Source: Candidatus Omnitrophota bacterium (GTDB taxonomy: Bacteria; Omnitrophota; Gorgyraeia; Zapsychrales; JANLHA01). From it: a stretch of DNA of 64,000 nt. The stretch is taken from positions 9,739 through 73,738 of the forward strand of contig JAHFFT010000004.1 in assembly GCA_023247795.1 (NCBI GenBank), in the 5' to 3' direction. Of this stretch, positions 1 through 34,967 are shown one piece after another (positions within the stretch are counted from its first letter, which is position 1; the number at the start of each line of letters is the position of its first letter). The position numbers and the translations under genes are program-made. The notes under the pieces are model-generated. The model was given only the letters and a program-made list of their open reading frames with translations. It made no database searches and was not told where the DNA came from.

Positions 1-1465
1 CCGCTCCTTTGGCAAATCGTTTGAACTGATACAGCTCGATCAATTCTTCGGAAACCCGCTCCTGCTCTCGGCACTTCGAACAAATTTTACGGACCAGCCG
101 CTGGCCCACAACGCCGATCAAAGAAGAAACGAGCAAAAACGGCCGCACTCCCATGTTCATCAAACGGATCAAAGAACCGGCGGCGGTCGAGGTATGCAGC
201 GTGCTAAGGACCAGATGTCCGGTCAAAGCCGCCTTGACCGCGATGTCCAGGGTCTCGGCATCGCGGATTTCGCCGATCATGATCACATCGGGGTCCTGCC
301 GCAAAACCGCGCGCAAAGTGTTGGCAAAGGTGAGATTCATGCTCGGACGGACATTGACCTGATTGACCCCTTTGATTTCATATTCAATCGGATCCTCAAC
401 CGTCACAATATTCCTCGTCGGAGTGTTGATGGATCGCAATAACGAATACATTGTCGTCGTCTTTCCACTTCCGGTGGGACCGCACGACAGGACCAATCCA
501 TGAGGACAGGCAACGCATTCCTTCAAATGTCGCAAGGCGTCATTTTCTAGACCAAGTTCATCGATGTCCAAGATATCGGCCGTGCGGTCAAGGATGCGCA
601 GAGCGGCCTTCTCACCAAACGCCGTCGGCAAAACGCTGACCCGGATATCAACCTGTCCATCATTCTCCATTTGGAAACTGAATCGGCCTTCCTGCGGCAG
701 ACGACGTTCGGCGATATCAAGATGAGCCAGGACTTTAAGCCGAGAGGTTATCGGCAAATGCAGTTCTTTTGAAAATTGATTGGCCTCCCGCAGTAGGCCA
801 TCCACCCGATAACGGACCCGCAAGACCCGCTGCATTGGTTCAATAAAAACATCGCTCGCCTTCATGCTGATCGCCTGCTGCAAAATTGTGTCGGTGAATT
901 TGATCATTGGCGCGTCGGGCGTCACGTCATCAATAAAAGTCCTTCCGGAAAAAGCACTCGGATCTTTCACCAACTCGAGAACTTCGCTTCCCTGCAGATC
1001 GTGAATGATGTCCTGAAGAATCTCGACGGAACTCGAGGAAAAATAGCGTTCGATCATTTCTTCGATCTGGGTGCGGCGGGCAATGATCGGTGTGATGTGC
1101 AAATTGGTGAGGTTCTCCACATGATCAATCGCGAAAATATTTAAGGGATCGGCCATGGCCAACGTTAGATTGTCCCCCATTTTTGAAATCGGAAGGATCT
1201 GATATTTGCTGGCGATGTCTTTGGGTAGGATATTGACCACATCGGGGTCGATTTTGATGCGTGAGATATCAATCGGTGGGACCCCTAAACCTTCACTGAG
1301 CAGGACCGTGAGCTGTTCTTCACTGATCAATTCAAGTTGGATCAAAACTTTACCAAGATCCTCGCCGGTCCTTTTCTGCCGCGCTAATGCGCGCTCAAGG
1401 TCTTGCGGCTTGATGACGCAATCACGGATGAGAATCTGCTGCAAACGTTCCTTCAATGAAAGCAT
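1..1465 (-). CDS. GspE/PilB-family type II secretion / type IV pilus assembly ATPase. N-terminus is at 1465; C-terminus runs off the window start.
   Basis: The minus-strand reverse complement translates from ATG at 1465..1463 as MLSLKERLQQILIRDCVIKPQDLERALARQ.... It has an N-terminal GspE_N/MshEN domain, then a Walker A motif GPTGSGKTTT and the conserved ATPase core (DPIEYE..., IMIGEIRD, CxxC). There is no stop before position 1. Confidence 0.85.
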   Translation of the reverse strand, partial: MLSLKERLQQILIRDCVIKPQDLERALARQKRTGEDLGKVLIQLELISEEQLTVLLSEGLGVPPIDISRIKIDPDVVNILPKDIASKYQILPISKMGDNLTLAMADPLNIFAIDHVENLTNLHITPIIARRTQIEEMIERYFSSSSVEILQDIIHDLQGSEVLELVKDPSAFSGRTFIDDVTPDAPMIKFTDTILQQAISMKASDVFIEPMQRVLRVRYRVDGLLREANQFSKELHLPITSRLKVLAHLDIAERRLPQEGRFSFQMENDGQVDIRVSVLPTAFGEKAALRILDRTADILDIDELGLENDALRHLKECVACPHGLVLSCGPTGSGKTTTMYSLLRSINTPTRNIVTVEDPIEYEIKGVNQVNVRPSMNLTFANTLRAVLRQDPDVIMIGEIRDAETLDIAVKAALTGHLVLSTLHTSTAAGSLIRLMNMGVRPFLLVSSLIGVVGQRLVRKICSKCREQERVSEELIELYQFKRFAKGA

Positions 1466-1552
1466 AATTCTCTCTCGTAGGGTCTATCTTCCATCGCCGG
1501 GAACCGTGTCCCAAGGTCCGGCTTCGGGCAAACCGGCGCTGTAAAAAATTCG

Positions 1553-2005
1553 CTACGAAAATCTGTGAAAATAACGGTCGATCGCATCTTTGATATCACC
1601 GGTTGTGCTCACAAACGTTTGTACCGAACATCCCGTAATCGATTCGACGTCATCAATGGCATTGCGATTGAGCGGATTGGACATGGCTAAGGTGAGACTT
1701 TTTCCGATTTTATCGATCGGAATCAACTGAAATTTCCGGCAGACGTCTTCGGGAACAGCGCGGACAACGTCTTCGTCGATTTCATAATTGGCCAAAGGAA
1801 GGTACGGAAATCCATATTGAGCGGTTAAAGCCTGTGCGATGTCCTCCTCGGTCGCGAATTTCAACTCAACGAGGATTTCTCCAAATAACCCGCCCTTTTC
1901 TTTCTGACGAGTCACGGCCATCGCGACCTGCTCCTGGTCAAGGACCCCCTTTTCAACCAAAAGCTCGCCGAGATGTTTATTTGTGATGCGTTTATATGTT
2001 TTCAT
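1553..2005 (-). CDS. Stand-alone GspE_N / MshEN domain protein (150 aa), a putative c-di-GMP-binding adaptor.
   Basis: The sequence HLGELLVEKGVLDQEQVAMAVTRQ...LFGEILVELKFATEEDIAQALTAQ matches the tandem MshEN motif RLGxxLLxxGxLxxxxLxxALxxQ. There is no ATPase domain. The gene lies immediately upstream, in the direction of transcription, of the PilB-like gene. Confidence 0.7.
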   Translation of the reverse strand: MKTYKRITNKHLGELLVEKGVLDQEQVAMAVTRQKEKGGLFGEILVELKFATEEDIAQALTAQYGFPYLPLANYEIDEDVVRAVPEDVCRKFQLIPIDKIGKSLTLAMSNPLNRNAIDDVESITGCSVQTFVSTTGDIKDAIDRYFHRFS

Positions 2006-2189
2006 TGCCGCAAAACGATCTTTTTAAAAAGGCTGCCTACCAACAACCCTCTGGGTGCATTTTACGTTTTAGATTTTACTATACAAAGAATGGCTTAACA
2101 ATCTAAATTGGCAAGGAATGAGAACGAGTAAGGCCGCTCAGGTTTTTAAGTCGAAGTCGTCTCCCTTTCGCGGACGGCTCTTTTCCCCT

Positions 2190-3929
2190 TCACCAAGATC
2201 CGCCGCCCCCGCCCCCGAATCCTCCCCCGCTAAAACCCCCGCCGACCGAAAATCCACCCCCGGAGGAGACGGTTTGCGGGGAAGAGTAAAAGCTGGACCC
2301 CATATGATCTAACGAACGATTGAGATCATGAACGAAATGATCAAAGATAAAAACCCCGGTATAATTTCCGGCAAACCACTGCGGCGACTGCGTATAGAGT
2401 CCGTCGAATTTGGTCGCCCATTTCGTGCTCATGCCCAAACAGATGGCATAAGGCAGCATCCGCTCGAAAACATTCTGCTGATCCGCCCTTTGGATCTTGT
2501 CCTTTTCAGTCCGCAGTAAAAATTCTTTGAACCCTAAAATCTTTGATAATATTTCCGTCCCCTCAACCGTCCGCTTCGGCATAATCACTCCAAACAGCAA
2601 AATGATCAAACTCGATAGCAGCAATGATCCCATCAACCAAGAATCATAAGCGCTGGAGAAGACACCCAAAAAAAATACAACACCGGCGATAGCGGTATAA
2701 AAGATGACAATGGCGGTCGGATGGTTCTCCAAATATTTTTTCGGCCGGAGTTCGTCTTTGATCCTTCCCTCGATCACGTCCACTTTTTCATAAAACCTAT
2801 TTTCCAGCTCGTACAATTTCACTTCGGAAGAAACAGGCTTGCCGCCAAAGATCGAACGGAGAATGATCCTTTCATACGGTTTTATCAACGCGTCGGCTTC
2901 AAAAGCCTTTAGCAAAATAAAGCTATAGTCTTTGCCGACAAAATTTTTGTCCTGTTGAACGATTTTCAAATAGCCGCGGATCGCTAAATCAATGATCGTG
3001 GCCGAGATATCACGTTGATCCAGCTTATAATCAATGAGCGTTCCCACTTCCGCAGGCTTGAGGTTGTCGGGCGCTTGGTATTCAACAACAATGCTCTTAT
3101 TCAAATGCGGATCTTTCCCAAAATGTCGCCAAAGATTGTACATCACGAAAAAGGACACGACAGGAATGAGCAAAGACCATGGCCCAATCGGCGGTTTAAC
3201 ATCATACGGATTATAAGAATGGTCTTCATTCGCTACCGATGATTGATCGAAATCGGAAACGGCCGGTGGTGTTAAAATCCCTTTCGGCACACCAACGACA
3301 ACTGTAAAACCTTCATAGGGCAGATAATTGTCGCCCGCGAACTCGATCAGTTGATCGTTGACGGCTTCACTTCTGGCATTGCTCGTTCTTGAACCTCGTC
3401 GACCGGTATAGGTGGCAATTTTGAGCGACTCCTTCGCTACGGGGACAGGTAAAAACAAAGAAACGCGGACCTGTTTGATGTTCACGTCCCACTGGTTACC
3501 GACCGCGTTCCAAAAAAGTTGATCCTGCTCAGGCAAAAAAAGGATGGCTCCCGTAACACGATAAGAAATGATGTAGGTCTGTCGGCCGGAAACGGTCCGA
3601 TAGGCGCTCCCGATCCTTAGCCGATGAACATAACCGTTATCTTCTTCCGTATAATCCCATGCCCTTCCGTTTTCATCCTGGATGGTGAAGTCGGTAAATC
3701 GCACGTTATAGGAATGGCCGTTTTCATTTTTAAAATCAATTGGAATATCGCGATAAATCCCATGCTTTGACTCGTAACCAAAATCAGCGTCGATTTTTTC
3801 GGTCACCAGAAAATGGCTGTCTTTCTCAAGCCTGATTTCAACACGATAATCCGCAATCTCCCACGCGTAGGCAGGGCTGAACATCGCGCAAAGAAAAATC
3901 GCCGAAAGAATCAACTGTCTCTGAAACAT
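2190..3929 (-). CDS. DUF2207-family membrane protein (579 aa).
   Basis: It has an N-terminal signal peptide, central TM helices, and a Gly-rich C-terminal tail GGGFSVGGGFSGGGFGGGGGGSW typical of DUF2207. It is adjacent to LemA, which is the conserved pairing. Confidence 0.75.
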   Translation of the reverse strand: MFQRQLILSAIFLCAMFSPAYAWEIADYRVEIRLEKDSHFLVTEKIDADFGYESKHGIYRDIPIDFKNENGHSYNVRFTDFTIQDENGRAWDYTEEDNGYVHRLRIGSAYRTVSGRQTYIISYRVTGAILFLPEQDQLFWNAVGNQWDVNIKQVRVSLFLPVPVAKESLKIATYTGRRGSRTSNARSEAVNDQLIEFAGDNYLPYEGFTVVVGVPKGILTPPAVSDFDQSSVANEDHSYNPYDVKPPIGPWSLLIPVVSFFVMYNLWRHFGKDPHLNKSIVVEYQAPDNLKPAEVGTLIDYKLDQRDISATIIDLAIRGYLKIVQQDKNFVGKDYSFILLKAFEADALIKPYERIILRSIFGGKPVSSEVKLYELENRFYEKVDVIEGRIKDELRPKKYLENHPTAIVIFYTAIAGVVFFLGVFSSAYDSWLMGSLLLSSLIILLFGVIMPKRTVEGTEILSKILGFKEFLLRTEKDKIQRADQQNVFERMLPYAICLGMSTKWATKFDGLYTQSPQWFAGNYTGVFIFDHFVHDLNRSLDHMGSSFYSSPQTVSSGGGFSVGGGFSGGGFGGGGGGSW

Positions 3930-3947
3930 GCGTCTCCTTCCCGATCC

Positions 3948-4511
3948 TCAAGAATTGAATTTGACCTCTGGCACTTTTCGTTCGACTGCCAGGGCGTCCA
4001 ATTGGAAAAATTCTTTGTTTCGAAAATGAAAGGCATTGGCAATGAGCGACGATGGAAACATTTGAATCATGGTATTGAAATCACGGACCACGGCGTTATA
4101 ATAACGACGGGCGGACTGAATGGTTTCCTCAATGTCGATCAAACTGGTTTGCAATCGCATGAAATTTTCATTGGCCTTCAAGTCTGGATATTTTTCAACA
4201 ACGGCAAATAATGACTTTAACGTGTTCGTCAAAAAATTTTCGGCTTGGCCTTTTTCCGCGACTCCCGATGAGCCCATCGCTTTCGCGCGCGCCTCAATGA
4301 CCGCCTGCAGTGTTGTCCGTTCATGTTTGGCATACCCTTCCACCGTGGCCACCAGATTCGGGATCAGATCATAACGTCGTTTGATTTGAATGTCCACATC
4401 CGACCAAGCATTGTCACCCCTCACCTTCAACTGAACCAATCCATTGTAAATGCTGACACCCCACATCACAAAAATCACAACAGCACACAAAATCAAAATG
4501 CCTGTCATCAT
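3948..4511 (-). CDS. lemA: LemA family protein.
   Basis: 187 aa with an N-terminal TM anchor followed by a LemA-like fold (…RRYDLIPNLV…RRYYNAVVRDFN…). Confidence 0.8.
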   Translation of the reverse strand: MMTGILILCAVVIFVMWGVSIYNGLVQLKVRGDNAWSDVDIQIKRRYDLIPNLVATVEGYAKHERTTLQAVIEARAKAMGSSGVAEKGQAENFLTNTLKSLFAVVEKYPDLKANENFMRLQTSLIDIEETIQSARRYYNAVVRDFNTMIQMFPSSLIANAFHFRNKEFFQLDALAVERKVPEVKFNS

Positions 4512-13643: not shown

Positions 13644-14132
13644 TTAGTTTTTCTTTGAAACAGGAATGCATTTGAGGGCGATGACAAACGCCCCGATCGT
13701 GATCGCGCTGTCAGCGATGTTAAAGACCGGCCACACGCGCAAATCGATAAAATCAATGACATAGCCATAGTAGATGCGATCAATGAGATTGCCGATCGCG
13801 CCGCCCAAAATCAACGAAAAGGCAAGGATGTAAAGCCGGCTCAATTTCTCGTCGTTGTGCTTATAGTAAATCACGTTATAAACCAACAGCACAATGGCAA
13901 TGACCGGGATGATGATGAAGACCGCACCCTGGTTTTTGAACAAGCCAAAGGCGATTCCGGTATTATGCACCAAGGTCATATGAAGACAGTCACGGACAAC
14001 GGGTATCGATTCTCCGGGGAAAAGGGTGTTCGAAAAAAAAATCTTTGTGAGGCGGTCAAAAAAAACAACGAGCGCAACCGTGCTTAAAGAAAGCACAATG
14101 TCAAAATAGGAACGGTTTCGGTAACTCGTCAT
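13644..14132 (-). CDS. lspA: Lipoprotein signal peptidase II.
   Basis: 162 aa, four TM segments, with conserved NxGxAFG and …NIADSAITIG… motifs. It sits next to ileS, the classic pairing. Confidence 0.85.
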   Translation of the reverse strand: MTSYRNRSYFDIVLSLSTVALVVFFDRLTKIFFSNTLFPGESIPVVRDCLHMTLVHNTGIAFGLFKNQGAVFIIIPVIAIVLLVYNVIYYKHNDEKLSRLYILAFSLILGGAIGNLIDRIYYGYVIDFIDLRVWPVFNIADSAITIGAFVIALKCIPVSKKN

Positions 14133-14178
14133 TCATCGCACCTGCGGGGGAAAGGGGGCTGTCGGGATCGAAAAAATT

Positions 14179-14586
14179 TTACAAATGGCTGCTTTTCGAT
14201 TTTTCCTTTTCCAGCTCTTCTTGGGCGGCGACGGTATATTCCGCGTAGGGGATGGCCTTCAAGCGGGCGGCCGGGATCGGTTTATGACTCTTCAAACAAA
14301 GTCCATACGACCCGTCATCAATCCGTTTTAAGGCGCTGTCAATCTTGGTCAACAATTCCCGTTCATTGGAAGCCAATCCGAGATTGAATTCCCGATCATA
14401 CATATCGGTCGCGGCATCGGCCATGTGCATCCCATGCCCGGAAGATTCTCCCGTCGACGGTTTTGAATCCACGGAATTGACTTCGTCCATATTATGGATG
14501 TCGTGAAGAAGAGCCTCTTTCATTTGCGTCAGTCTCTTCTTGAAATAATCCAATTGTGCTTTATTCATCTTTTTTTTGATTGCCAT
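14179..14586 (-). CDS. DksA/TraR-family protein with a degenerate (Cys-poor) zinc finger.
   Basis: Coiled-coil N-terminus plus a C-terminal DksA-like tail, but with a single Cys (YGLC…YTVA) where Cys4 would normally be. Confidence 0.7.
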
Positions 14587-17383
14587 GCTTCAACATCTCC
14601 TTTACAATTTGCGCACTGCGCGAGGATAAAGTTGGATAATCCGGATCATCTCCTACGTCGGTTGAGTATTTCCAAGAAAGCGCACATTTTTTCCCATCGG
14701 CCTTATGGACTTGGATCTCTAAATTCGGCCATTTGGGGTCAACCGCGGCATCGATTTTATCGATTTTTTGCACTGGCGCCTGAGAGACCACAAAATAATC
14801 GGCCAGCCGCCCTTCAAACTGATTCAAATATTTAAAAAGCTGTTCCGACGCGGTTTTAAAAATGACTTTGGCATCAAGCGAACTGCCAATCAAACCTCCG
14901 CGCCTTTGCTCTTCCAAAGCCTTCATCACAAACGGTCTTAATTCAATGAGCTGCTTAAACTTCTCGTCAATTTCCGGATTGCACCAATCGTCCGTGACAC
15001 CCAAAAATTCTAAGGCGTGGACACTCTGATGCTGCCGCATTCCGGCGTCTTTCGGCATCATTTGAAAAATTTCTTCCGCGGTGAAACATAAAATCGGCGC
15101 TAAAACCCGCACCAAATGATTCAAGATATGAAAAAGAACCGTCTGCGCCGACTTTCTTTTCTGCGATTTAGCAGGAGAAATATAAAGGCGATCCTTTAAG
15201 ATGTCAAGATAAAAATTGGAAAGGTCGTCGTTGCAAAACTGATAAATACTGCGAAAAATCCTCACGAAATCATACTGTTTATACCCCTGTTCACATTCTG
15301 CCTTTATCCGATAGGAGAGTCGATCCAAGGCCCATTGGTCGAGTTCTTCAAGCTGTTTGTAGGGAAGCTGCTCTCGATCAGCGTCAAAGTCATAAAGATT
15401 CCCTAAAAGATACCGAGCGGTATTGCGGATTTTGCGATAGGCATCGGTCAGTCTCGCCATCACCTCGTCAGAAATGCGAATATCTTCTTGATACGAACTG
15501 GACGCCACCCAAAGCCGCAAAATATCAGCCCCGCTTTTTTCAATCAAATCCAATGGCAAGATGACGTTGCCTAAGGATTTCGACATCTTCCGGCCCTGGC
15601 CATCCACCACAAAGCCGTGAGTCAGAACCCCTTTGAACGGTGCGCGGCCTTCTAAGGCGACGGCTGGGATCAGCGATGATTGAAACCATCCGCGATGCTG
15701 ATCACTGCCTTCCAAATAAAGATCAACCGGGATTTTCAAACCCATCTTGGCCTTCACCACGGCCTGATGGCTGACCCCGGAATCAAACCACACGTCGAGG
15801 ATATCAAACGTTTTTTCCCATTCGTCCGCTTTATAATTTTTTGGCAACAACTCTTCCAAAGGCTTTTGAAACCAAGCATCCGTCCCTTCCTTTTTAACGA
15901 TCTCAGCGAAATGATTGATCACGTCCGAATCCAAGACCAACTCTTCTTTGCTTCCCTTCCGTTTCAGCGCTGGAATGGGAACGCCCCAATAACGTTGGCG
16001 GGACAAACACCAGTCAGGCCGACCTAAAACCATGGATAAAATCCTTTCCTTAGCGCTAGCAGGGATCCATTCCACTTCACGTTCAATCACTTCTTTGAGA
16101 CGAGCGCGCAGATTCTCATGATCAATTTTCAAAAACCATTGCTTGGTCGCACGGAAAATGATCGGTTTTTTCGAACGCCAGGAATGCGGATAAGAATGTC
16201 GGATGTCTTCCTTGGCCAACAAATCTCCCTGTTGGAAAAGATCATCGACGATGATCGGATTCGCTTTAAAGACATGCATTCCGGTATATTTCCCAGCACC
16301 TTCGGTATAAACCCCGCGTTCGTCGACGAGCATCACCACATCCAAAAGATATTCCTTACCTGTAGCGAAATCTTCCTGACCATGCCCGGGGGCGGTATGC
16401 ACCAAACCGGTCCCATCTTCTCTGGTCACATAATCAACCGTTACGACCAGACATCTTTCTCGAAACATAAGCGGATGGCTATAACGAAATTGGACCAATT
16501 CCCGGCCGGAAAGCGTCTGCAAAATTTTAAAATCTTCAATACCAGCCTTTTTTAAAACCTTTGCAGCCAACGATTCCTCAATCACTAGGATCTCTTTCCC
16601 GATGTCAATCAAAGCGTAACGAAAATCCTTATGGACCGCGACCGCCACATTCCCGACGAGAGTCCAAGGGGTCGTTGTCCAAATGACCAATGCCAACGGT
16701 TTCTTGGGAATGGAAATCTTGCAATCATCTTGATTCTGCACCCAAAATTTAGCATACACGGTCGTCGAGGTGATCTCGTCATATTCCACTTCTGCTTCAG
16801 CCAACGCGGTCTCGTGCTCAACACACCAATTGACTGGCTTGTAATCAAGTTCGATGTAACCCTTGCTTCGCAAGGCCGAAAGCGATTTCAGGATCCAATA
16901 TTCGTATTCATGATCCAGTGTCAAATACGGATCGTCCCATTGACCAAAAATTCCCAGCCGTTTGAACTGTTCTTTTTGGATACCCACATATTTCATCGCA
17001 TAGTCATGGCAGCCCCGACGGAATTGGACTGGATCGATCTCATTTTTTCGCAGCTTCAGTTCTTTTAACAGCTGATGTTCGATCGGAAGCCCATGACAAT
17101 CCCAGCCCGGGACGTAGTGCGCATCGTACCCCTGCATGGCCCGCGATTTCACGATGATATCTTTAAGGATTTTGTTCAGGGCATGGCCCATATGGATGTC
17201 GCCGTTGGCATACGGCGGCCCGTCGTGGAGAATAAACTTTGGCTTGCCGTTCGCATTCTGACGGATCTTTTGATACAGGCCGGTCTTTTCCCAATGCGTA
17301 AGCCACTCTGGCTCTCTTTGCGCCAGATTTGCTTTCATGGAAAATTCGGTTTGGGGAAGGTTTAAAAACTTACGATAGTCCAT
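14561..17383 (-). CDS. ileS: Isoleucine--tRNA ligase.
   Basis: 940 aa with HIGH-class motif [16 protein letters not shown], and an editing-domain insertion. Confidence 0.95.
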
Positions 17384-24949: not shown

Positions 24950-27748
24950 TCAGCCGTCCTGAGCAAACGGCACTTGCGGATCAAGGATCTCATTCATGAT
25001 GAAATCCAAAGCGCATAGGTAATATTGATAAACTTTTTCTCTTTGTTCAAGCATTTTCGGATCTAAAAATGTTTTTACCTCCAAAGTGCACAAATTATAA
25101 AGCGCTGCGTTGACGGAGGCCTCTGGATATTGCTGCTGCAAATAATGGAAATACAACGGCAATTGGAAAGAACGGATCTGGTCCCGGATCCATTCTCGGG
25201 TGAATCCACAGCGAGAATCGATCGCGCCGGCCCGCGGCATCTGGTCCCGAGAACCGGTTTTATAATCAAGGATCAAGATTGTACCGTCGGGCATTTGATC
25301 AATCCGGTCAATGACATATTTGAATTTGATATGGCCTGCTGACAACTCGATTTTTTCCTCACAGCGATGCTCCAGAAACAGGATTTTATCGACGCGCCGT
25401 TCAGGACTGGATTGCTCATGGTCCATAAAGCGCTGCAGCCGCTCTTCCATGACCGCCTTTAACAGAAAACTGTCTGATTTCATGCTCCGGCCAAAGGTCT
25501 CGACGAATTTATGCTCAAAACTTTTCATCAAGCGCTGACGGAAAACCTCATCGATGAGTGGCTGTTTGTTCAAGAACGGCAGAAAACTCTGCTCCAAAAT
25601 CTCATGGATGAACGTGCCCACGTGTCTGGCCTCGGGCTCATCAAGGGAATCGTCCTGCTCCTCAATCCCCAAAACATAGCGCTCATAAAATTCCCAAGGA
25701 TCGTTCAGATAAGTGTTGAGACTGGAGGCAGAGTAAGACATCCTTTTTAAAAAATCGATCATCGCCGGCGTTTTTCGCATTTCCTTTTTTTGCGGCCGGC
25801 TTATGACTTCATAACCCACCGTTGCTATTTCGACCGCGTCGAGACGGTTCTGGAATTTCTGTTCTTCCCAAATCAATTCCTCAATAAAACGACTACGCTC
25901 TTTCTCTTTATTTTTCTGGTAGATCAAGTGCACATGCTTTGCCGAGGAAATGAGACGCATGAATTGATAGCGCTGGATCTCTTCTTCCAATTCAACGCGG
26001 TTGAGATCCAAACTAATCATCACGTCACGCGGGATGAGGGGCTGATAAAGTGTGAGATTCGGCAGCCGCCCTTCGTTCATGTCTAAGACAATCACATTCT
26101 CAAAATTGAGCGAACGGGTCTCAAACAACCCCAAAATCTGCAGTCCTTTCAGCGGGGAGCCTTGAAACGGGACTCGTTCACTTTCCAATTTGGTTTGAAA
26201 GACCTGAAAAATCTGTTCTGACGAGAATGGTTCATTGCGAAAGCTGGCCTGTTTCAATTCCTCAATCACATCATAGACCCGGGCGGCAATATTGAGATTG
26301 AGCGGGAAATGCTGGAGATAACTCTGTCCGACGAGGGTATCTAAAAAATTTTCTAAGCGGCTGGTGAAATCACCAAAATTCTTAATCTCGCCCCAGGCCA
26401 GAAATAAAAGTTCATGCAATTCTGCCAAAAGTTTTTCCAGATGTTCACGGTTGCTTAAGATCTGCAGACGGTCGAGCATTTCCGAGGCCGAAAGATACAG
26501 ATCATCCAGACGGAGCATATCCTCAAGATCCAAAAACAGACTACCGGAGAGCGACGACCGTTCACTACCAGTCAAAATCTCCTCGATCTTATGGACCACG
26601 ATCCGCGTTGCCGCCGCGTCACCGGTGAGTTTCAGATTCTTGATAAACGGATGTCTTAAAACCTGCAAATAATCCCGGGAATAAAATTTGCCGTTCCTTT
26701 TTGACAATTGCGCTTTGAAGATGAGTGTAAAGAGCGAGTATAGACTACTGCGCTGCAAGGGATACCCCATGGAAATATTGAAATCTTTCACCACATGACT
26801 GATCTCAGAAACCAAAGGTGTCACCAAATCCGGGGTCGGCAAAACAATGACGGTCTCCTCTGGATTCTTAATCTTTTTGAGGATCTCTCGTGCGATCCCG
26901 ACCTGCGAATGGCTGTCAAAACCTTCATAGATCTTCAGCTGAAAACCCGGCCGCTGTGGCTCATCCCCCTCGAGGATGGGGCAGGAAAAATTCTTTGCCA
27001 TCCGATCAAAGATCTGCCATTTGCGCTGATCACCTTGGAAAAACAGAACCGCCTTCTTCTGCGCTCTTAACTTCTTGATCACTTCTTCTTCACAGCGATT
27101 GAAATAAAAAAAGTTGCAGATCAGAATTTGATCAAATTCTTTGAATTCTTCCGTAAAATCACAATCTCGGCTGATCTGGGAGGCACGCAAATATTGCAGA
27201 CCACGCGAGAATTGCTTTCGCTTGAACATCTCCTGATGATACGCCTGGCGCAGAATGACAATATGCGAAAGCAGCTCATTTAAGTCCGCCGGCACTTCGT
27301 AACCGATCTGTGCGACTGATTCCACTGTCTTTAATTTTTGATCATCGATATTTTCTAGGTCGAGACTCTCGATGAAAGCCAAAATTTCTTTGGCCCAGGG
27401 TAAAAATTGGGCAAAGCGTTGACGCCCGGCAATCACCTTCGGGGTCAATTTTATCGCGAGTTGATACAACAGATAACAACTCTCCAAATCCGAAGGCACA
27501 CCGAACTTTTCCCTTTTGCGTACGATGGTGGCCATGAACTCATTGATGGAAAAAAACGTGGGCGGATAAAAACTCTTTTTCAGTCGAGTAGCAAGTTTCC
27601 GTTTTAAAAAAAGGTTTGGCCGACGGCCACCAAAGACAATGGCCAATCGATTCAACTCTCGATCCGTTGAGAGATAATGCTCATCGAGATACTCCATCAA
27701 TTGATCGAGAAAAGATTCACAAAATGAAAAGGTATGGACGTCATTCAT
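24950..27748 (-). CDS. addB: AddB-like helicase-nuclease subunit: degenerate N-terminal Walker A and a C-terminal RecB-family PD-(D/E)XK nuclease.
   Basis: About 930 aa. The C-terminus reads …YVIDRIDQMPDGTILILDYKTGS… (nuclease motif). The N-terminal VFGGRRPNLFLKR is a degenerate P-loop. ATG at 27748 overlaps the addA stop (ATGAATGA). Confidence 0.75.
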   Translation of the reverse strand: MNDVHTFSFCESFLDQLMEYLDEHYLSTDRELNRLAIVFGGRRPNLFLKRKLATRLKKSFYPPTFFSINEFMATIVRKREKFGVPSDLESCYLLYQLAIKLTPKVIAGRQRFAQFLPWAKEILAFIESLDLENIDDQKLKTVESVAQIGYEVPADLNELLSHIVILRQAYHQEMFKRKQFSRGLQYLRASQISRDCDFTEEFKEFDQILICNFFYFNRCEEEVIKKLRAQKKAVLFFQGDQRKWQIFDRMAKNFSCPILEGDEPQRPGFQLKIYEGFDSHSQVGIAREILKKIKNPEETVIVLPTPDLVTPLVSEISHVVKDFNISMGYPLQRSSLYSLFTLIFKAQLSKRNGKFYSRDYLQVLRHPFIKNLKLTGDAAATRIVVHKIEEILTGSERSSLSGSLFLDLEDMLRLDDLYLSASEMLDRLQILSNREHLEKLLAELHELLFLAWGEIKNFGDFTSRLENFLDTLVGQSYLQHFPLNLNIAARVYDVIEELKQASFRNEPFSSEQIFQVFQTKLESERVPFQGSPLKGLQILGLFETRSLNFENVIVLDMNEGRLPNLTLYQPLIPRDVMISLDLNRVELEEEIQRYQFMRLISSAKHVHLIYQKNKEKERSRFIEELIWEEQKFQNRLDAVEIATVGYEVISRPQKKEMRKTPAMIDFLKRMSYSASSLNTYLNDPWEFYERYVLGIEEQDDSLDEPEARHVGTFIHEILEQSFLPFLNKQPLIDEVFRQRLMKSFEHKFVETFGRSMKSDSFLLKAVMEERLQRFMDHEQSSPERRVDKILFLEHRCEEKIELSAGHIKFKYVIDRIDQMPDGTILILDYKTGSRDQMPRAGAIDSRCGFTREWIRDQIRSFQLPLYFHYLQQQYPEASVNAALYNLCTLEVKTFLDPKMLEQREKVYQYYLCALDFIMNEILDPQVPFAQDG

Positions 27749-30700
27749 GGACGGCCTCCACATCAAAACTGTCCAAATAAACCAGAAATCCTTTGATGGT
27801 CCTTTGCGGATAAAGCTCGGCCAAAATCTTCATGTATTCCAAAACCTGCGCTTGATTCCGTCCCTGCTGATCAAGACTCCATTTGAAATCAATGACCAAG
27901 ACGTCCTTTGCTCCGACGATGATACGGTCCGGCCTCTTGGTATGACCATAGCTGTTCACAATCTCCTGTTCGCAAAAAACCTGGCCTTCAGCCAAATCAA
28001 AAAACGGTTTTACGCGGCTGTCCTGCAAAAAATTTTTAATCCGGTCCATGACCGGGTCAATGATGTCCGTTTCTGAAAACTGCAGATCAGCCTGTGCTTT
28101 CAATTCCTGTAAGATCTCGATGAGCGGACGATCGTGCAAATTCCCAATGAACGCCAAAAGGGCATGCATGTGCTGTCCATGCAAACGCTGCCGTCGGTTC
28201 TTAAGTTCACCTGCGGAAACAAATTCATCGCGTAGAAATTCCATCCAGTCATGATATTGCGCCTGGGGAATTTTAATCAGCTCGGCCTTGGCCTCCTTGC
28301 TTTTAAAAATCGCGGTACCGGGTTGACCGTGGCGAAACCAGCTCGGCGGGATTAAAAACTTTAGAAAATTTAAATTCTGTCCAGTTCGCTGCGGGATAAA
28401 GGCATAAAGTTCTTCCTGCGGACGGGTGAGTGCTACATAAACATTGTTCAATTCGATAAAAAGGGCGTCCAAATACTGCTGACGATAGATCCGCGAAAGC
28501 CGGTCAGAAAATTTGTAATACTTTTCTTTGAGACGCAGCAGTTGGATTTGCTGACCATCGGACACCGTGACATAAGAGTATTGCTGTTCAGTCCGCGAAC
28601 CCACCTGGACCTTCATCCCCAAAAACGGCAAAATAACAACCGGGAACTCCAGACCCTTGGCCTTGTGGATCGTCAAGACTTTAACTGCGTCCCGATCTGT
28701 AATCCGGACATAAAGCTCTTCACCATCCAATCCTTCAAAATATTTGAGAAATGACGAAATATCGGCATGTTCTTGCTCCTGTTCTTTGATCAGTTCTAAA
28801 AAACGCATCAAAAAGCCCTGGTCTCCGGGAAAACGCTGCAACACCCCCAAGCGGTGATAAATGCTGACGATCATTTCATAAAGTGGATACAAACCTATGT
28901 TGCGAAAATATTCGTCAAAGTATGCTTCCCACAGTTTCGGAAACTGCTGGCGAAATTCGGTGTAGTGATAAAAGGATTCCTTTTGACGTGACCGTTCCCG
29001 AAGCTGGAAAATGAAATCGTGCCAGAACTCTTTCGTTTGTTGTGTCACACTCGCAAAGATTTCTCCGCCGATAAAGGAGATGAACGCAGCATTATCAATC
29101 GGTGAATCTAAGAATTTTAAAAAATCGATCAACTCCAAAATAATGCTATTTTCCCGAATGCTGGAGGTCCGTTCCGAGTCGACGGCAATCCCTTGCGTCA
29201 AAAGCCAATGGGTCACCTGCTCGCTTTCAGCATGGCTGCGGGTGAGGACCGCCATGTCCTGATAAACATAGCGCTGATGCAAGTCTTTGACCAATCCTAA
29301 CAATTTCTCGTGGATGACTTCATCGCGCTCATCTTTGTTCGCGATATCAATGAATTCGAACTGAACATAGCCATCCAGCTTTTCTTGATGGACCTCTTGC
29401 TGAGCGTGCTGAAAGACCTGCTCCAACCGCTTAAAATCTGTCTCATTGAATTGGATGGCAGACGCGCTTCGATTTTTGCTTTCCTCATGATTGGTCTTTT
29501 CCTGAATGAACCGCTTTAAATTTATAATTGAAAAAATCTGATTATTGAATTCCACGACAGCCTTTTGGCTCCGCCAGTTTTTCACTAAGACTTCGCGATG
29601 CAGCTGCGTTGAGGAAAACGATTCAGTGACCTCGTCGAACAGCCGGGCGTCTCCTCCGCGGAAATCATAGATCGCCTGTTTGCGATCGCCAACATAATAC
29701 AAAGAACCGGCCGCGGCCAGGGACTCCTCGATCAAAGGGTAAAGGTTCTTCCACTGCAAACGGCTGGTATCTTGAAATTCATCCCATAGGTAATGGCGAA
29801 ACCTCGTGGCCAGACGAAAATACAATTCTTCAACACTGAGCTGCCCTTGCTCAAAGAGCAGACGCGCTTTTCGGTTTAGTTCGTCGAGGAAAACAACATC
29901 CTCTTTCATGCAAATCTGCAAGAGCGATTGGTGCACCGGCTCAAAAATCCCAAGATAAGGATCAAACAATGACACCGCTTCCTCTTCGCACAGCTCGATC
30001 AAATGCTGATGGATCTGAGCCCATAACCGATCAAGTTCCGAAGGGACTTTCGCGTCTTTTCTTAGAGGGATTTCACTTCGCGCGAAATAATCGGAAACAC
30101 TGTCAATATCGAAAGACTGTTCGTGCTTCTTTAAAAATTGTTCAATGCCCTTTCGGAAACTGGCGTTGGTTTCCTCAGGAAGCTGGTCGAAAAGTTTTTT
30201 CATTGCTGACAAAATCAGACGCTTTTTTTTAATCAGGTCTTCTGGAGCAAAAGGCGATCTTTTAAAGTCGTGGGCATAAACATTCTTTAGCTGATTGAGA
30301 GAATAAAGGATGGCCAGGATATCCTTTTTCGGGAACCAGTTGCCGCGATTTTCCAAATACAGGTAATTGTGCAAAAAATGTCGGAATAACTTTTGCAATG
30401 GTTCCTGGTGTTGCGCCTGATCAATGACACTGTCCAAGGCCTGTTCCAAATAGACAATGGCATTGTTACGGATCTGAAAATGCGTTGTCAACCCCAACTT
30501 AAACGCGCAACCGAGAAGAAAGGAATTGATCAATTTGTCGATCGTCTGGACTTGAAAATAGTGATAGTGATGAATGATCGATTCCATCATCTGAAAAGCG
30601 ATCTTACTGGCCTGCACCTGACTCAAGCCGATCGAACGCAAAATGTCTTTCTCCTCGACCGGACTCAAATCCTGAAAAGCGATCCGTTTGAGCAGCTGCA

Positions 30701-30911
30701 GAATCCTGGCCTTCATCGCAAAGGCGGCTTTATTGGTGAACGTGACTGCCAGCAGCGTCTGAAAATTCCTGGGGTCGGCGACAAACGAGGGATGGAATAA
30801 CAGCTGGACATAGCGCTGGGCCAAGGCATAAGTCTTCCCCGAGCCGGCCGAGGCCTCAACCATGCGGATTTCTGGAAATTCAAAAATTTTTGCCGAAGAA
30901 GGATTCATCAA
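27741..30911 (-). CDS. addA: AddA-like UvrD/Rep superfamily-1 helicase with a C-terminal RecB-type nuclease.
   Basis: 1056 aa. Walker A is EASAGSGKTY. SF1 helicase motifs are present. The C-terminal sequence is RPDRIIVGAKDVLVIDFKWSL. Confidence 0.8.
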   Translation of the reverse strand: MMNPSSAKIFEFPEIRMVEASAGSGKTYALAQRYVQLLFHPSFVADPRNFQTLLAVTFTNKAAFAMKARILQLLKRIAFQDLSPVEEKDILRSIGLSQVQASKIAFQMMESIIHHYHYFQVQTIDKLINSFLLGCAFKLGLTTHFQIRNNAIVYLEQALDSVIDQAQHQEPLQKLFRHFLHNYLYLENRGNWFPKKDILAILYSLNQLKNVYAHDFKRSPFAPEDLIKKKRLILSAMKKLFDQLPEETNASFRKGIEQFLKKHEQSFDIDSVSDYFARSEIPLRKDAKVPSELDRLWAQIHQHLIELCEEEAVSLFDPYLGIFEPVHQSLLQICMKEDVVFLDELNRKARLLFEQGQLSVEELYFRLATRFRHYLWDEFQDTSRLQWKNLYPLIEESLAAAGSLYYVGDRKQAIYDFRGGDARLFDEVTESFSSTQLHREVLVKNWRSQKAVVEFNNQIFSIINLKRFIQEKTNHEESKNRSASAIQFNETDFKRLEQVFQHAQQEVHQEKLDGYVQFEFIDIANKDERDEVIHEKLLGLVKDLHQRYVYQDMAVLTRSHAESEQVTHWLLTQGIAVDSERTSSIRENSIILELIDFLKFLDSPIDNAAFISFIGGEIFASVTQQTKEFWHDFIFQLRERSRQKESFYHYTEFRQQFPKLWEAYFDEYFRNIGLYPLYEMIVSIYHRLGVLQRFPGDQGFLMRFLELIKEQEQEHADISSFLKYFEGLDGEELYVRITDRDAVKVLTIHKAKGLEFPVVILPFLGMKVQVGSRTEQQYSYVTVSDGQQIQLLRLKEKYYKFSDRLSRIYRQQYLDALFIELNNVYVALTRPQEELYAFIPQRTGQNLNFLKFLIPPSWFRHGQPGTAIFKSKEAKAELIKIPQAQYHDWMEFLRDEFVSAGELKNRRQRLHGQHMHALLAFIGNLHDRPLIEILQELKAQADLQFSETDIIDPVMDRIKNFLQDSRVKPFFDLAEGQVFCEQEIVNSYGHTKRPDRIIVGAKDVLVIDFKWSLDQQGRNQAQVLEYMKILAELYPQRTIKGFLVYLDSFDVEAVHE

Positions 30912-32918: not shown

Positions 32919-34967
32919 TTAAATTTTCGCTCTCGTTTCATCCTCTGCCGGCTGTAACAGACTTTGATCTTCCACCGGCAAGGTGATCGTAAACGTCGTC
33001 CCTTTATCGATCTTGCTTTCAACACTGATGTGCCCATGGTGCCGCTCGACGATCAAATAGACCGTGCTCAACCCCAGGCCTGTTCCTTTGCCCGGTTCCT
33101 TGGTCGTATAAAAAGGATCAAATATCTTCGGAAGACGATTTTCCGGAATTCCCTCACCAGTGTCCTTGATTTTGATGACTACCTGCCCTTGATCTTGCGA
33201 TCCCTTTTTTGGGATATGATGACCGACCACAATTTCAATGTCACCGCCCCGCGGCATCGCGTCAATGGCATTGGCCATCAAATCAAAAATAGCCTGCTCA
33301 AGCATCAGCTGATCCCCGTAAACAATTTTTTGGGCAATGGAACAGCTTTCGTGGATCTGAACATTATTCAATTGCGCGTTGTTGCGGATCAAAGACACCG
33401 ATTCATGGATCACCTGACAAATGTCGACGGGCTTCATATCCATCTGCGAAGAACGGGAGTATTTCAAGATCGAGGTAACAACATCATTGGCCCGCTGTGA
33501 GGCGCTTTTAACGATTTTGATGTAAGGCATTTCCTCTTCTTCATTCCTTTTGATCGCCGCTTTCTCTAACCGCTCCATGCCCTGCATGATCACCGCCAAA
33601 GGATTTTTGATTTCGTGAGCGAACCCGGCGGCCAAGGTTCCGATCGTCGCCATTTTCTCGATTTGAATCATCTGCTGCTGCGTTTCCTTCAATTGTCGAT
33701 ACGCCCTTTCCCGCTCCTGAACCATGGCCTTGAGAGCATTCGCGTTGGTTAACAAATTTTTATTTAACGTCCTCAATTCATCTTCAAATCCTTTACGTTT
33801 GGTGATATCGCTTCTGATCGAAACATATTGGAAAGGCTGTCCATTCTCATCGAGCAGAGGGACAATGGTGCTGTCAACCCAATAAAACGTCCCGTCTTTT
33901 GCCCGATTCCTGATCTCTCCCTTCCAGACTTTTCCGTTGGCAATCGTCTTCCATAAATTCCGAAAAAAATCTTTCGGATGATATCCGGAGTTGATGATCC
34001 GATGATCTTGGCCCAACAGTTCCTTGCGGCTGTATTGCGAGATCTCACAAAATTTATCATTGGCATAAATGATCTTGCCCGCCGGGTCAGTGATCGCCAC
34101 AATCGCGTGCTGGTCCAGCCCCGACTTGATGTTCTCCAGCTCCCGCAGCGATTGATCTAGTTTGGCGGCCAAGCGCTTACGTTCGCGGATGTCCCGCATG
34201 ATACCGATCGATCCCGTGATTTCACCGTCGGGATTTTTCAAAACACTGATGGAGATGTCAATATCAATCAAATTTCCGTCTTTATCATAAACCTGCGTTT
34301 CCAGATGACGGTCTTTCCCATACTGGCGGATTTGATAAGACCGGATCCGTTTCCATTCTTCGGGAGGATATAAGGAACGGACCGTCTTGTTGAGCAATTC
34401 TTTTGTTTCAAAACCCAATAAATTCACGGCCAGCTTATTGCAGGCGACGATCCGTTCCTTTTCATCGGCAAAGGTGATCGCAACGGCCGAATTATGAAAA
34501 ATCGTCCGGAATCTTTCTTCTGACTCACGGATCTTTTCGATGTTCGCCAAAAGCTGGGTTTCGCGTTTCGCAAGTAAGGCTTCCAGGCTTTCCTGGTAGC
34601 GGCGCATGATGTCCCGCAACGAGACCATACCAACGATCGCACCATTTTGGGTGACCGGCAGATGACGGATATTTTTCTGCCGCATCAATTCCAAAACTTC
34701 ACCGTAACTCTCGTCGTGTTCGACAGTGATGAGGTTTTTGGTCATGATGTCGGCCATCATGGTGTCCTTCAATCGTTCCGGTCTGGCCACATCGAGTTTA
34801 GCCAAGAGGTCCCGTTCGGTAAAAATACCGATGGGCTCATCCTGGCGATCCCTGACCAAAAGCGCGCCGATTTTCTCTCGGCGCATGAGTTTGAGCGATT
34901 CGATGAGCGGAGTATCATCAACGACCGAGATGATACTTTTTGTCATATATTCTGAGATAGGTTTCAT
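32919..34967 (-). CDS. Sensor histidine kinase: CBS pair + PAS domains + HisKA + HATPase_c.
   Basis: Two N-terminal CBS modules, the H-box FAHEIKNPL, and G1/G2 boxes (DTGEGIP, GTGLGLS). It has no TM segment, so it is a cytoplasmic sensor. Confidence 0.85.
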   Translation of the reverse strand: MKPISEYMTKSIISVVDDTPLIESLKLMRREKIGALLVRDRQDEPIGIFTERDLLAKLDVARPERLKDTMMADIMTKNLITVEHDESYGEVLELMRQKNIRHLPVTQNGAIVGMVSLRDIMRRYQESLEALLAKRETQLLANIEKIRESEERFRTIFHNSAVAITFADEKERIVACNKLAVNLLGFETKELLNKTVRSLYPPEEWKRIRSYQIRQYGKDRHLETQVYDKDGNLIDIDISISVLKNPDGEITGSIGIMRDIRERKRLAAKLDQSLRELENIKSGLDQHAIVAITDPAGKIIYANDKFCEISQYSRKELLGQDHRIINSGYHPKDFFRNLWKTIANGKVWKGEIRNRAKDGTFYWVDSTIVPLLDENGQPFQYVSIRSDITKRKGFEDELRTLNKNLLTNANALKAMVQERERAYRQLKETQQQMIQIEKMATIGTLAAGFAHEIKNPLAVIMQGMERLEKAAIKRNEEEEMPYIKIVKSASQRANDVVTSILKYSRSSQMDMKPVDICQVIHESVSLIRNNAQLNNVQIHESCSIAQKIVYGDQLMLEQAIFDLMANAIDAMPRGGDIEIVVGHHIPKKGSQDQGQVVIKIKDTGEGIPENRLPKIFDPFYTTKEPGKGTGLGLSTVYLIVERHHGHISVESKIDKGTTFTITLPVEDQSLLQPAEDETRAKI

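Follow-up and report, generated by a model that had tools for sequence, protein, structure and literature searches.

A free-standing MshEN protein beside PilB-type motors in Omnitrophota, a putative detached c-di-GMP-sensing subunit

Introduction

To our knowledge, MshEN, a receptor domain for c-di-GMP (cyclic dimeric guanosine monophosphate), has almost always been studied in fusions with ATPases or glycosyltransferases. Here we describe a 150-residue protein made of MshEN only, which we named SA1, together with the PilB/GspE-family ATPase encoded next to it (PilB1), in a stretch of 64,000 nucleotides from a Candidatus Omnitrophota bacterium (contig JAHFFT010000004.1, positions 9,739 to 73,738; hereafter the window). 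In 83 related loci, the residues that matter most for ligand binding are kept in SA1 and have been lost almost completely from the MshEN domains carried by the motors. From these sequences, we propose that SA1 probably serves a type IVa-like pilus motor of Omnitrophota (PilB1 and perhaps the tandem ATPase PilB2) as its detached c-di-GMP-sensing subunit or N-terminal module, a reading to which we give a probability of roughly 0.6.

[quoted passage not shown] In the complex of MshE from V. cholerae (VcMshE), the backbone amides of the glycine at position 3 of each motif and of the residue that follows bind the guanines, leucine triads stack on one guanine face, and the arginine at position 1 covers the other without hydrogen bonds (PMC5013675). 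Binding is undetectable in the G11L variant and 72-fold weaker in G40I; Q32A and Q61A are about 10-fold weaker, single Leu-to-Ala changes more than 10-fold and L29V 4-fold (PMC5013675 supplement), and changes of Arg9 cost about 5-fold at most (PMC5013675). In PilF from T. thermophilus, the GSPII-B domain has K167 and L196 at the position-1 sites and binds at 6 nM; putting arginine back weakens binding, and the consensus was therefore extended to (R/K/L)LG..., with a hydrophobic first residue proposed to predict very high affinity (PMC11731258). The GSPII-A domain of PilF does not bind despite a fully restored consensus, its pocket being blocked by an extension of helix alpha-1 that is stabilised by an N-cap (PMC12002112). 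Finally, Wang et al. place PA3740 from P. aeruginosa with the proteins for which c-di-GMP binding is experimental and not predicted, and mention that an LxxxLxxQ binding motif was identified in it; their table of domain architectures holds no plain MshEN-only protein, only PA3740 with its diverged C-subdomain (PMC5013675).

Results

SA1 is a free-standing MshEN protein encoded next to an ATPase

An initial annotation of the window, made from the sequence alone, had placed a free-standing 150-residue MshEN protein before a PilB/GspE-type ATPase. Both genes are real and lie as described, with the SA1 gene 5' of the ATPase gene on the same strand and 87 nucleotides away:

1553..2005, minus strand: SA1, free-standing 150-residue MshEN protein; open reading frame with its stop codon at 1553-1555, four-helix MshEN_N followed by alpha/beta MshEN_C
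1556..1816, minus strand: MshEN_C (T2SSE_N1-like) subdomain of SA1, residues 64-150; Pfam MshEN covers residues 64-147
1466..1552, no strand assigned: spacer of 87 nucleotides between SA1 and the ATPase, without a terminator-like site
1..1465, minus strand: PilB1, first 488 codons of a PilB/GspE-family ATPase, truncated at the left end of the window (573 residues on another contig)
458..481, minus strand: Walker A of PilB1, GPTGSGKT, from the translation
260..295, minus strand: PilB1 stretch DPDVIMIGEIRD, recorded from its sequence pattern as the Walker B / Asp-box region, a label of our own assignment

SA1 matches the Pfam MshEN model (PF05157) with 77.1 bits (E-value 1e-21; gathering cut-off 23.1) and no other model, and it scores 58 bits on NF053729, the 53-residue NCBIfam model named 'c-di-GMP_motif' (cut-off 38). 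The ATPase matches T2SSE (2e-112) and MshEN (1e-21, 76.8 bits) and reaches 47.5 bits on NF053729. With hidden Markov model E-values of 1e-12 to 1e-21, the MshEN similarity of both proteins is far above chance, and SA1 and the N-domain of the ATPase are paralogous (35% identity over 141 residues, E-value 1e-30). On the PilB model TIGR02538 (equivalog cut-off 675.65), the truncated window ATPase scores 523.9 bits, while full-length orthologues of PilB1 and PilB2 score 624.7 and 637.1; on the GspE model TIGR02533 (cut-off 630.25), the same full-length orthologues reach 587.6 and 605.9. Because they fall just under the equivalog cut-off of TIGR02538, we label them PilB/GspE-family motors, and on these scores they are best described as such motors, closest to PilB, of a type IVa-like pilus cluster.

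In the AlphaFold2 (AF2) model of SA1, computed with 32 family members (mean predicted local distance difference test score, pLDDT, 79.9), the N-terminal part consists of four helices, and three beta strands flanked by helices come after it. Its top match in the PDB is c-di-GMP-bound MshE (5HTL_B; template-modelling (TM) scores 0.80/0.85, root-mean-square deviation 1.9 Å). Next come the GSPII domains of PilF (9G1W, 6EJF) and the N-domain of X. citri PilB in its complex with PilZ (7LKM), and TM scores over all these matches, 5HTL included, are 0.70-0.85. More than 3500 homologues of SA1 were found. The best 120 are 141-213 residues long, 119 of them being shorter than 170, and share 71-80% identity with SA1, besides the identical sequence and one match of 213 residues at 59%; the named ones come from Candidatus Omnitrophota. 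When each species was represented by one genome, relatives were encoded in at least 477 species genomes, and the best 80 are all metagenome-assembled genomes of Omnitrophota, some of them labelled 'uncultured Planctomycetales'. K10, L12, G13, Q34, L40, G42 and Q63 are invariant in the family, as are long stretches of the C-subdomain, and this very conserved MshEN_C is probably a surface for contact with a partner protein.

SA1 and the ATPase depart from the MshEN consensus in opposite ways

Residues 9-70 of SA1 align to residues 7-68 of VcMshE (PDB 5HTL) with no gap, which fixes the residue equivalences. The features are the following:

1904..1975, minus strand: SA1 motif I, residues 11-34, HLGELLVEKGVLDQEQVAMAVTRQ; Gly13 is G11 of VcMshE, Gln34 is Q32, position 1 is His
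1889..1903, minus strand: five-residue linker KEKGG between the SA1 motifs, of the same length as the 5-residue spacer that defines MshEN (PMC5013675)
1817..1888, minus strand: SA1 motif II, residues 40-63, LFGEILVELKFATEEDIAQALTAQ; Gly42 is G40, Gln63 is Q61, position 1 is Leu, position 10 is Lys
1376..1447, minus strand: ATPase motif I, residues 7-30, RLQQILIRDCVIKPQDLERALARQ; Gln at the G11 position of VcMshE, Cys at G18
1289..1360, minus strand: ATPase motif II, residues 36-59, DLGKVLIQLELISEEQLTVLLSEG; Asp at position 1, Glu at position 10 and Gly instead of the last Gln

SA1 thus shares with V. cholerae MshEN the two-subdomain fold, the two 24-residue motifs and the length of their linker. 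Compared with VcMshE, it has R9 changed to H, L25 to V and L29 to V in motif I, and R38 to L, L39 to F, G47 to K and L54 to I in motif II. The position-3 glycines and the terminal glutamines are retained (G11, G40, Q32 and Q61 of VcMshE are G13, G42, Q34 and Q63), and positions 2, 17 and 21, which form the triads, are all hydrophobic (L12, V27, V31, F41, I56 and L60). Unlike the ATPase-fused domain of VcMshE, SA1 is a separate polypeptide, with His or Gln and Leu in place of the two arginines and Lys at position 10 of motif II. In the ATPase, motif spacing is identical (linker KRTGE), and Q30 and the arginine of motif I are kept; its changes are G11 to Q (Q9), G18 to C, R38 to D, G47 to E and Q61 to G (Gly59). 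The departures from the consensus are therefore opposite, SA1 losing the arginines and the ATPase a glycine and a glutamine. The consensus RLxxxLLxxGxxxxxxLxxALxxQ had been read twice in both proteins, and neither of them carries it in that form: SA1 is without the motif arginines and motif II of the ATPase is degraded.

By the published rules, the changes of SA1 should be mild or even favourable, and the change of G11 to Q in the ATPase disabling. The missing arginines need not disqualify SA1, because GSPII-B of PilF binds at 6 nM with K167 and L196; the Leu at position 1 of motif II, inside the extended (R/K/L) set, is a feature that SA1 shares with GSPII-B. In the initial annotation, loss of the key Arg/Leu/Gln motif residues in a careful alignment was to refute the reading. 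For arginine, such a loss is what the alignment has for SA1, but it is no longer a valid test now that a domain with Lys and Leu is known to bind (PMC11731258).

Binding residues are kept in the free proteins and lost from the motors

The ATPase gene being cut by the left edge of the window, and the contigs with the identical SA1 protein being 4.3 kb or shorter and adding no context, we used the loci of relatives for both synteny and a residue census. The sample comprises 83 related loci, all from Candidatus Omnitrophota, and the proteins considered are SA1, a second free MshEN protein (SA2) and the tandem ATPases PilB1 and PilB2. In VcMshE numbering, the census gave the following partition of the binding DETERMINANTS across free and motor-borne MshEN domains. 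Both G11 and G40 are Gly in every SA1 (83/83 and 83/83) and every SA2 (31/31 and 31/31). At the G11 position, PilB1 never has Gly (0/76; K in 29, Q in 28, T in 10, L in 5 and I in 2), nor does PilB2 (0/68), where I, L or V stands instead. At the G40 position, PilB1 has Ser in 65/76 and Gly in only 4/76, the window ATPase among these, and PilB2 has Gly in 2/68, with Asp, Glu or Arg instead. Q61 is Gln in 83/83 SA1 and 31/31 SA2 proteins; the corresponding residue is G, S or A in PilB1 (G in 52, S in 13) and Glu in 59/68 PilB2. Q32 is Gln in 78/83 SA1 and in all 31 SA2.

Other positions are less constant. Position 1 of SA1 is Q (40) or H (30) in motif I and Leu in 82/83 in motif II, and position 10 of its motif II is K in 56, G in 14 and N in 7. 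For SA2, position 1 is L, R or F in motif I and Y, F or L in motif II; for PilB1, it is R in motif I and E (50), R (9) or D (6) in motif II; for PilB2, it is K or R in motif I and S, G or P in motif II. The scores on NF053729 follow the same order across relatives, with 58-62 bits for SA1, about 60 for SA2, 45-48 for the PilB1 N-domains and 26.6-28.4, below the cut-off, for those of PilB2. Within the cluster, conservation too is highest for SA1: its mean pairwise identity is 0.69, whereas the ATPase cores have 0.67, their N-domains 0.58 and 0.56, and SA2 0.51. Since the ATPase N-domains have the same fold and have lost G11, G40 and Q61 almost completely, the retention of these residues in the free proteins argues for more than a need of folding. 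This asymmetry is the strongest computational argument that a ligand-binding role was kept by the free proteins and given up by the motors. The idea that the ATPase N-domain is itself a competent c-di-GMP site found no support: the equivalent of G11 is absent in 76/76 orthologues of PilB1, and the PilB2 N-domains fall below the NF053729 cut-off.

SA1 and PilB1 occur as one chain in a metagenome locus

In one locus on a metagenome contig (L088), a single protein of 765 residues, P0134, combines an SA1-like domain, a linker and a PilB1 orthologue. Its residues 4-149 are 41% identical to SA1 and 43% to SA2 and carry canonical RxG/RLG motifs; the linker consists of 45 residues of low complexity, rich in Gly, Asn and Lys; residues 193-758 are the PilB1 orthologue (46% identity; 548 bits compared with 463 for PilB2), the motifs of which are degenerate (G to I). 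A PilB2 orthologue (51%) and then PilC follow P0134. The fusion in one chain is a Rosetta-stone arrangement and implies one working unit of SA1 and PilB1. Either form may be the derived one: fission may have given rise to the split form, or fusion to the joined one.

SA1 opens a pilus operon

In the 83 loci, the order of genes runs from PBP2 and RodA through an optional HAMP-GAF-GGDEF-like gene to SA1, and then through PilB1 (about 575 residues), PilB2 (about 569 residues) and an optional SA2 to PilC. N_methyl pilin genes, PilM, PilN, PilO and Secretin are found further downstream in relatives. The initial annotation had advised a check for pilM/N/O/Q or gspF among the upstream genes beyond the window; in relatives, PilC, PilM/N/O and the secretin lie downstream of the ATPases. 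PilB1 directly follows SA1 in 81/83 loci, with gaps that are mostly of -4 to +8 nucleotides; the gap of 87 nucleotides in the window is thus wider than in most relatives, where it is at most 8 nucleotides or an overlap. The GGDEF-like gene precedes SA1 in 37/78 loci, and SA2 is present in 31 of the 64 loci that reach PilC. In one locus (L075, 7321-10839), a single open reading frame of 1173 residues spans PilB1 and PilB2, which is either a fusion of the tandem motors or an artefact of assembly or frameshift.

In the window, the genes upstream of SA1 on the same strand encode DUF2207, LemA, RodA, PBP2, MreD, MreC and MreB. The LemA (187 residues) and DUF2207 (579 residues, with a Gly-rich C-terminus) pair lies between rodA and SA1 (2190-4511, minus strand), in a slot that is empty or holds the HAMP-GAF-GGDEF-like gene in the 83 relatives, so that it looks like a lineage-specific insertion. 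A further feature lies in the same region:

2073..2107, minus strand: two overlapping sigma-70-like hexamer pairs, about 70-100 nucleotides upstream of the SA1 start; a weak candidate for the operon promoter

In scans for promoters and terminators near genes, the sites were not above the shuffled expectation, the 4 promoter sites against 2.0 expected being not significant alone.

Genes of c-di-GMP turnover accompany the operon in several lineages

In 7 loci (L073, at 13943-15016, L074, L075 and L081-L084), an HD-GYP phosphodiesterase gene, in part with a REC domain, stands between PilB2 and PilC, and another is found in L089 (9821-10861). Those in the slot of SA2 match Pfam HD_5 and carry the HHE...GYP signature. 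The same slot is occupied in L068 by a REC-GGEEF cyclase and a GGDEF-like protein of 1383 residues. L090 has the gene of a canonical RYGGDEF cyclase with an RxxD site, and this gene shares 4 nucleotides with the start of the free MshEN gene. The divergent free MshEN proteins of L089-L091 (42-45% identity) likewise precede ATPases with residues other than Gly at position 3 of the motifs.

A HAMP-GAF-GGDEF-family membrane protein is encoded directly upstream of SA1, often overlapping its start, in L003 (8571-10004) and 36 other loci. We considered it as a cyclase and rejected this assignment, its signature being RFGDHEF without an RxxD I-site, and we did not count it as evidence of c-di-GMP synthesis.

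A putative role for SA1

Domain identity, fold, conservation, synteny, the fusion and the neighbouring enzymes are observed; ligand binding by SA1, its contact with PilB1 and the direction of the effect are what we infer. On our proposal, c-di-GMP would bind the four-helix bundle of SA1 in the mode of MshE and PilF. The backbone NH groups of Gly13-Glu14 and Gly42-Glu43 would bind the Hoogsteen edges of the guanines, the hydrophobic triads L12/I56/L60 and F41/V27/V31 would each stack on one face of a base, with His11 and Leu40 replacing arginine in covering the other, and Gln34 and Gln63 would bind the ribose-phosphate ring. Liganded SA1 would then dock through MshEN_C on the PilB1 hexamer, possibly also on PilB2 or on the PilM/PilC platform, and this docking would license or tune pilus extension. 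The N-domains of the ATPases would have lost c-di-GMP sensing and be left with a structural or docking role only. The initial annotation had proposed that a stand-alone MshEN module could be a c-di-GMP sink, a decoy or an adaptor that regulates the ATPase. What stands is that a separately encoded module belongs functionally with a PilB-type ATPase, with a link to c-di-GMP that is backed by residue conservation and context; the sink and the decoy have become less likely.

Several observations weigh against a sensing role. The 64-kb window contains no GGDEF, EAL, HD-GYP or PilZ signature, no c-di-GMP riboswitch or other Rfam family reaches its gathering score there, and the window itself thus offers no direct evidence of c-di-GMP turnover; the GGDEF-family neighbour found upstream of SA1 in relatives is degenerate. 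In the AF2 model, helix 1 starts two residues ahead of motif position 1, at residue 9, which is compatible with a blocked or an apo state. The His or Gln at position 1 of motif I is outside both the relaxed [RKPN] and the extended (R/K/L) sets, and L25 and L29 are both Val in the window SA1, L29V alone being about 4-fold weaker in VcMshE. PilB1 N-domains still exceed the NF053729 cut-off, and their loss of binding is a prediction. Moreover, the sequence rules are necessary and insufficient, because GSPII-A of PilF still does not bind with its consensus restored (PMC12002112). Some of these points would suit a different function, in which SA1 would be a structural GSPII module blind to nucleotide, of the kind of PilF GSPII-A or XpsE-N, and would act as a bridge or spacer between the PilB ATPases and the PilM/PilC platform, its Gly, Gln and Leu being kept only for folding. 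GSPII-A has a near-perfect motif I and yet is a non-binder, SA1 has lost both arginines, its helix alpha-1 is N-terminally extended in the model, and the degenerate upstream neighbour would fit as well. However, N-domains of the same fold in the ATPases have dispensed almost entirely with G11, G40 and Q61, residues that are present in every SA1 and SA2; HD-GYP and active GGDEF genes lie inside or overlap the operon in several lineages; and Leu at position 1 of motif II is as in the highest-affinity binder known. We therefore regard a purely structural module as somewhat unlikely.

A sink for c-di-GMP or a competitive decoy would call for no productive complex with the ATPase: SA1 would buffer the ligand, or block the platform site of the PilB N-domain and so inhibit assembly. 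SA1 is small, soluble and paralogous to the ATPase N-domain, it is first in the operon and probably made in at least equimolar amounts, and its C-subdomain has a homologue in the GspL-contacting domain of type II secretion (2BH1 and 4PHT are among the matches), all of which would agree with such a function. A covalent fusion to PilB1 is unexpected for an inhibitor or a buffer, though, and a strongly conserved C-subdomain would be superfluous in a sink. SA1 is also always kept beside PilB1 and is more conserved than the motor, which fits an obligate subunit better. Given this fusion and the conservation of SA1, the highest in the cluster, a sink or decoy is less likely than a detached sensor subunit, and we consider it quite improbable. 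As fused (MshEN)2-T2SSE proteins exist (P0134, and the domain-architecture table of PMC5013675), the 150-residue open reading frame might also have been a fragment of such a gene produced by a frameshift or by the assembly. This origin, or that of a pseudogene, was rejected and is effectively refuted: SA1 is a separate open reading frame with its own Met start and stop, mostly of 147-153 residues, in 83 loci, it has a relative in the at least 477 species genomes mentioned above, the identical protein occurs on three independent contigs, and a non-coding spacer of 87 nucleotides lies behind its stop codon in the window.

Returning to SA1 as a detached sensor, a more elaborate version, which we think unlikely, is that sensing has moved off both PilB motors to one or two free, exchangeable subunits (SA1 and SA2), and that the loaded subunits choose the motor that engages PilM/PilC, fed by the cyclase and HD-GYP enzymes of the operon. 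If true, c-di-GMP would act through a selection switch between motors instead of a simple on/off activation of one ATPase.

Comparison with described systems

Like PilF of T. thermophilus with its three GSPII domains A, B and C (8PDK, 9G1W, 6EJF), the Omnitrophota operon has binding-type and non-binding-type MshEN domains that serve a pilus ATPase. Unlike in PilF, where all are in one chain and a non-binding domain comes first, a gene of its own encodes the binding-type domain here, and it is the degenerate domain that remains on the ATPase; the fused protein of L088 also differs in order, with the putative binder first, then the degenerate domain and the ATPase. The principle is the same as in the PilB-PilZ-FimX systems of Xanthomonas and Pseudomonas (7LKM, 7LKO), where the motor's own N-domain is also ligand-blind, and by this analogy SA1 may work like the trans-acting adaptors of the PilZ/FimX type. 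Unlike FimX, a degenerate EAL protein, and the adaptor PilZ, which are no homologues of the ATPase, the putative sensor SA1 is paralogous to the ATPase N-domain. It matches MshEN only, without a PilZ or a degenerate EAL/GGDEF domain, and is thus not a member of the PilZ/FimX adaptors. The P. aeruginosa protein PA3740 (MshEN_N and a diverged T2SSE_N1, no ATPase) is, like SA1, essentially an MshEN-type module outside an ATPase, a likeness drawn from its description. Unlike PA3740, which Wang et al. describe as a swarming-motility protein and which has a highly diverged C-subdomain, SA1 has a canonical and conserved C-subdomain and is the first gene of a PilB-PilB-PilC operon.

What we describe is neither a new fold nor a new chemistry. 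It is a clear reorganisation, across a phylum and open to direct tests, of a major receptor for c-di-GMP. In a phylum of mostly uncultivated bacteria, the determinants of sensing are found only on the separate copy and the motor-borne copies have decayed, a partition observed in 83 loci. If binding and docking hold true, the operon would be a natural system in which ligand sensing can be separated from the mechanics of a type IV pilus motor. His/Gln and Leu would then join the position-1 variants in the rules for predicting MshEN binding, and annotation would change, as 'MshEN present' on a pilus ATPase would not mean 'c-di-GMP-responsive'.

MshEN-only proteins form a large class

Single-domain MshEN proteins had been described as little studied, which appears correct: literature searches, in full text, on stand-alone MshEN, on Omnitrophota pili with c-di-GMP and on PA3740 returned no paper devoted to MshEN-only proteins. 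Among 1.84 billion cluster representatives searched, 22,122 matched, and 57 of the best 150 are 215 residues or shorter. Among these 57, some of which are probably fragments and two of which are without the N-terminal motifs entirely, G11 is kept in 50, G40 in 49, Q32 in 45 and Q61 in 51, and Leu stands at position 1 of motif II in 27. A look-up of ten divergent short homologues named one from Omnitrophota and one partial GspE from Wallbacteria. MshEN-only proteins are thus a large, unstudied class, and, if SA1 binds as proposed, this large pool of unannotated proteins would become candidate c-di-GMP receptors. The search of representatives also brought up five proteins of about 1300 residues (P0123, P0127, P0137, P0196 and P0248) with 5-7 tandem MshEN repeats, an unusual architecture, and without the PilB-type Walker A pattern G[PS]TGSGK[ST].

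Other genes of the window

The only signalling protein among the annotated open reading frames of the window is a sensor histidine kinase of 682 residues with a CBS-PAS-PAS-HisKA-HATPase architecture (32919-34967, minus strand). Nearly all other long, non-overlapping open reading frames of the 64 kb are on the minus strand; a frame of 570 residues without a Pfam match (52666-54378) is apparently the only long gene on the plus strand. Another, of 1542 residues (56967-61595, minus strand), has no match in Pfam-A at E <= 1e-4 and lies in an otherwise housekeeping region. Finally, a UvrD-type helicase of 1056 residues and a PD-(D/E)XK nuclease-domain protein of 938 residues are encoded side by side (24950-30911, minus strand) and resemble an AddAB-like helicase-nuclease pair.

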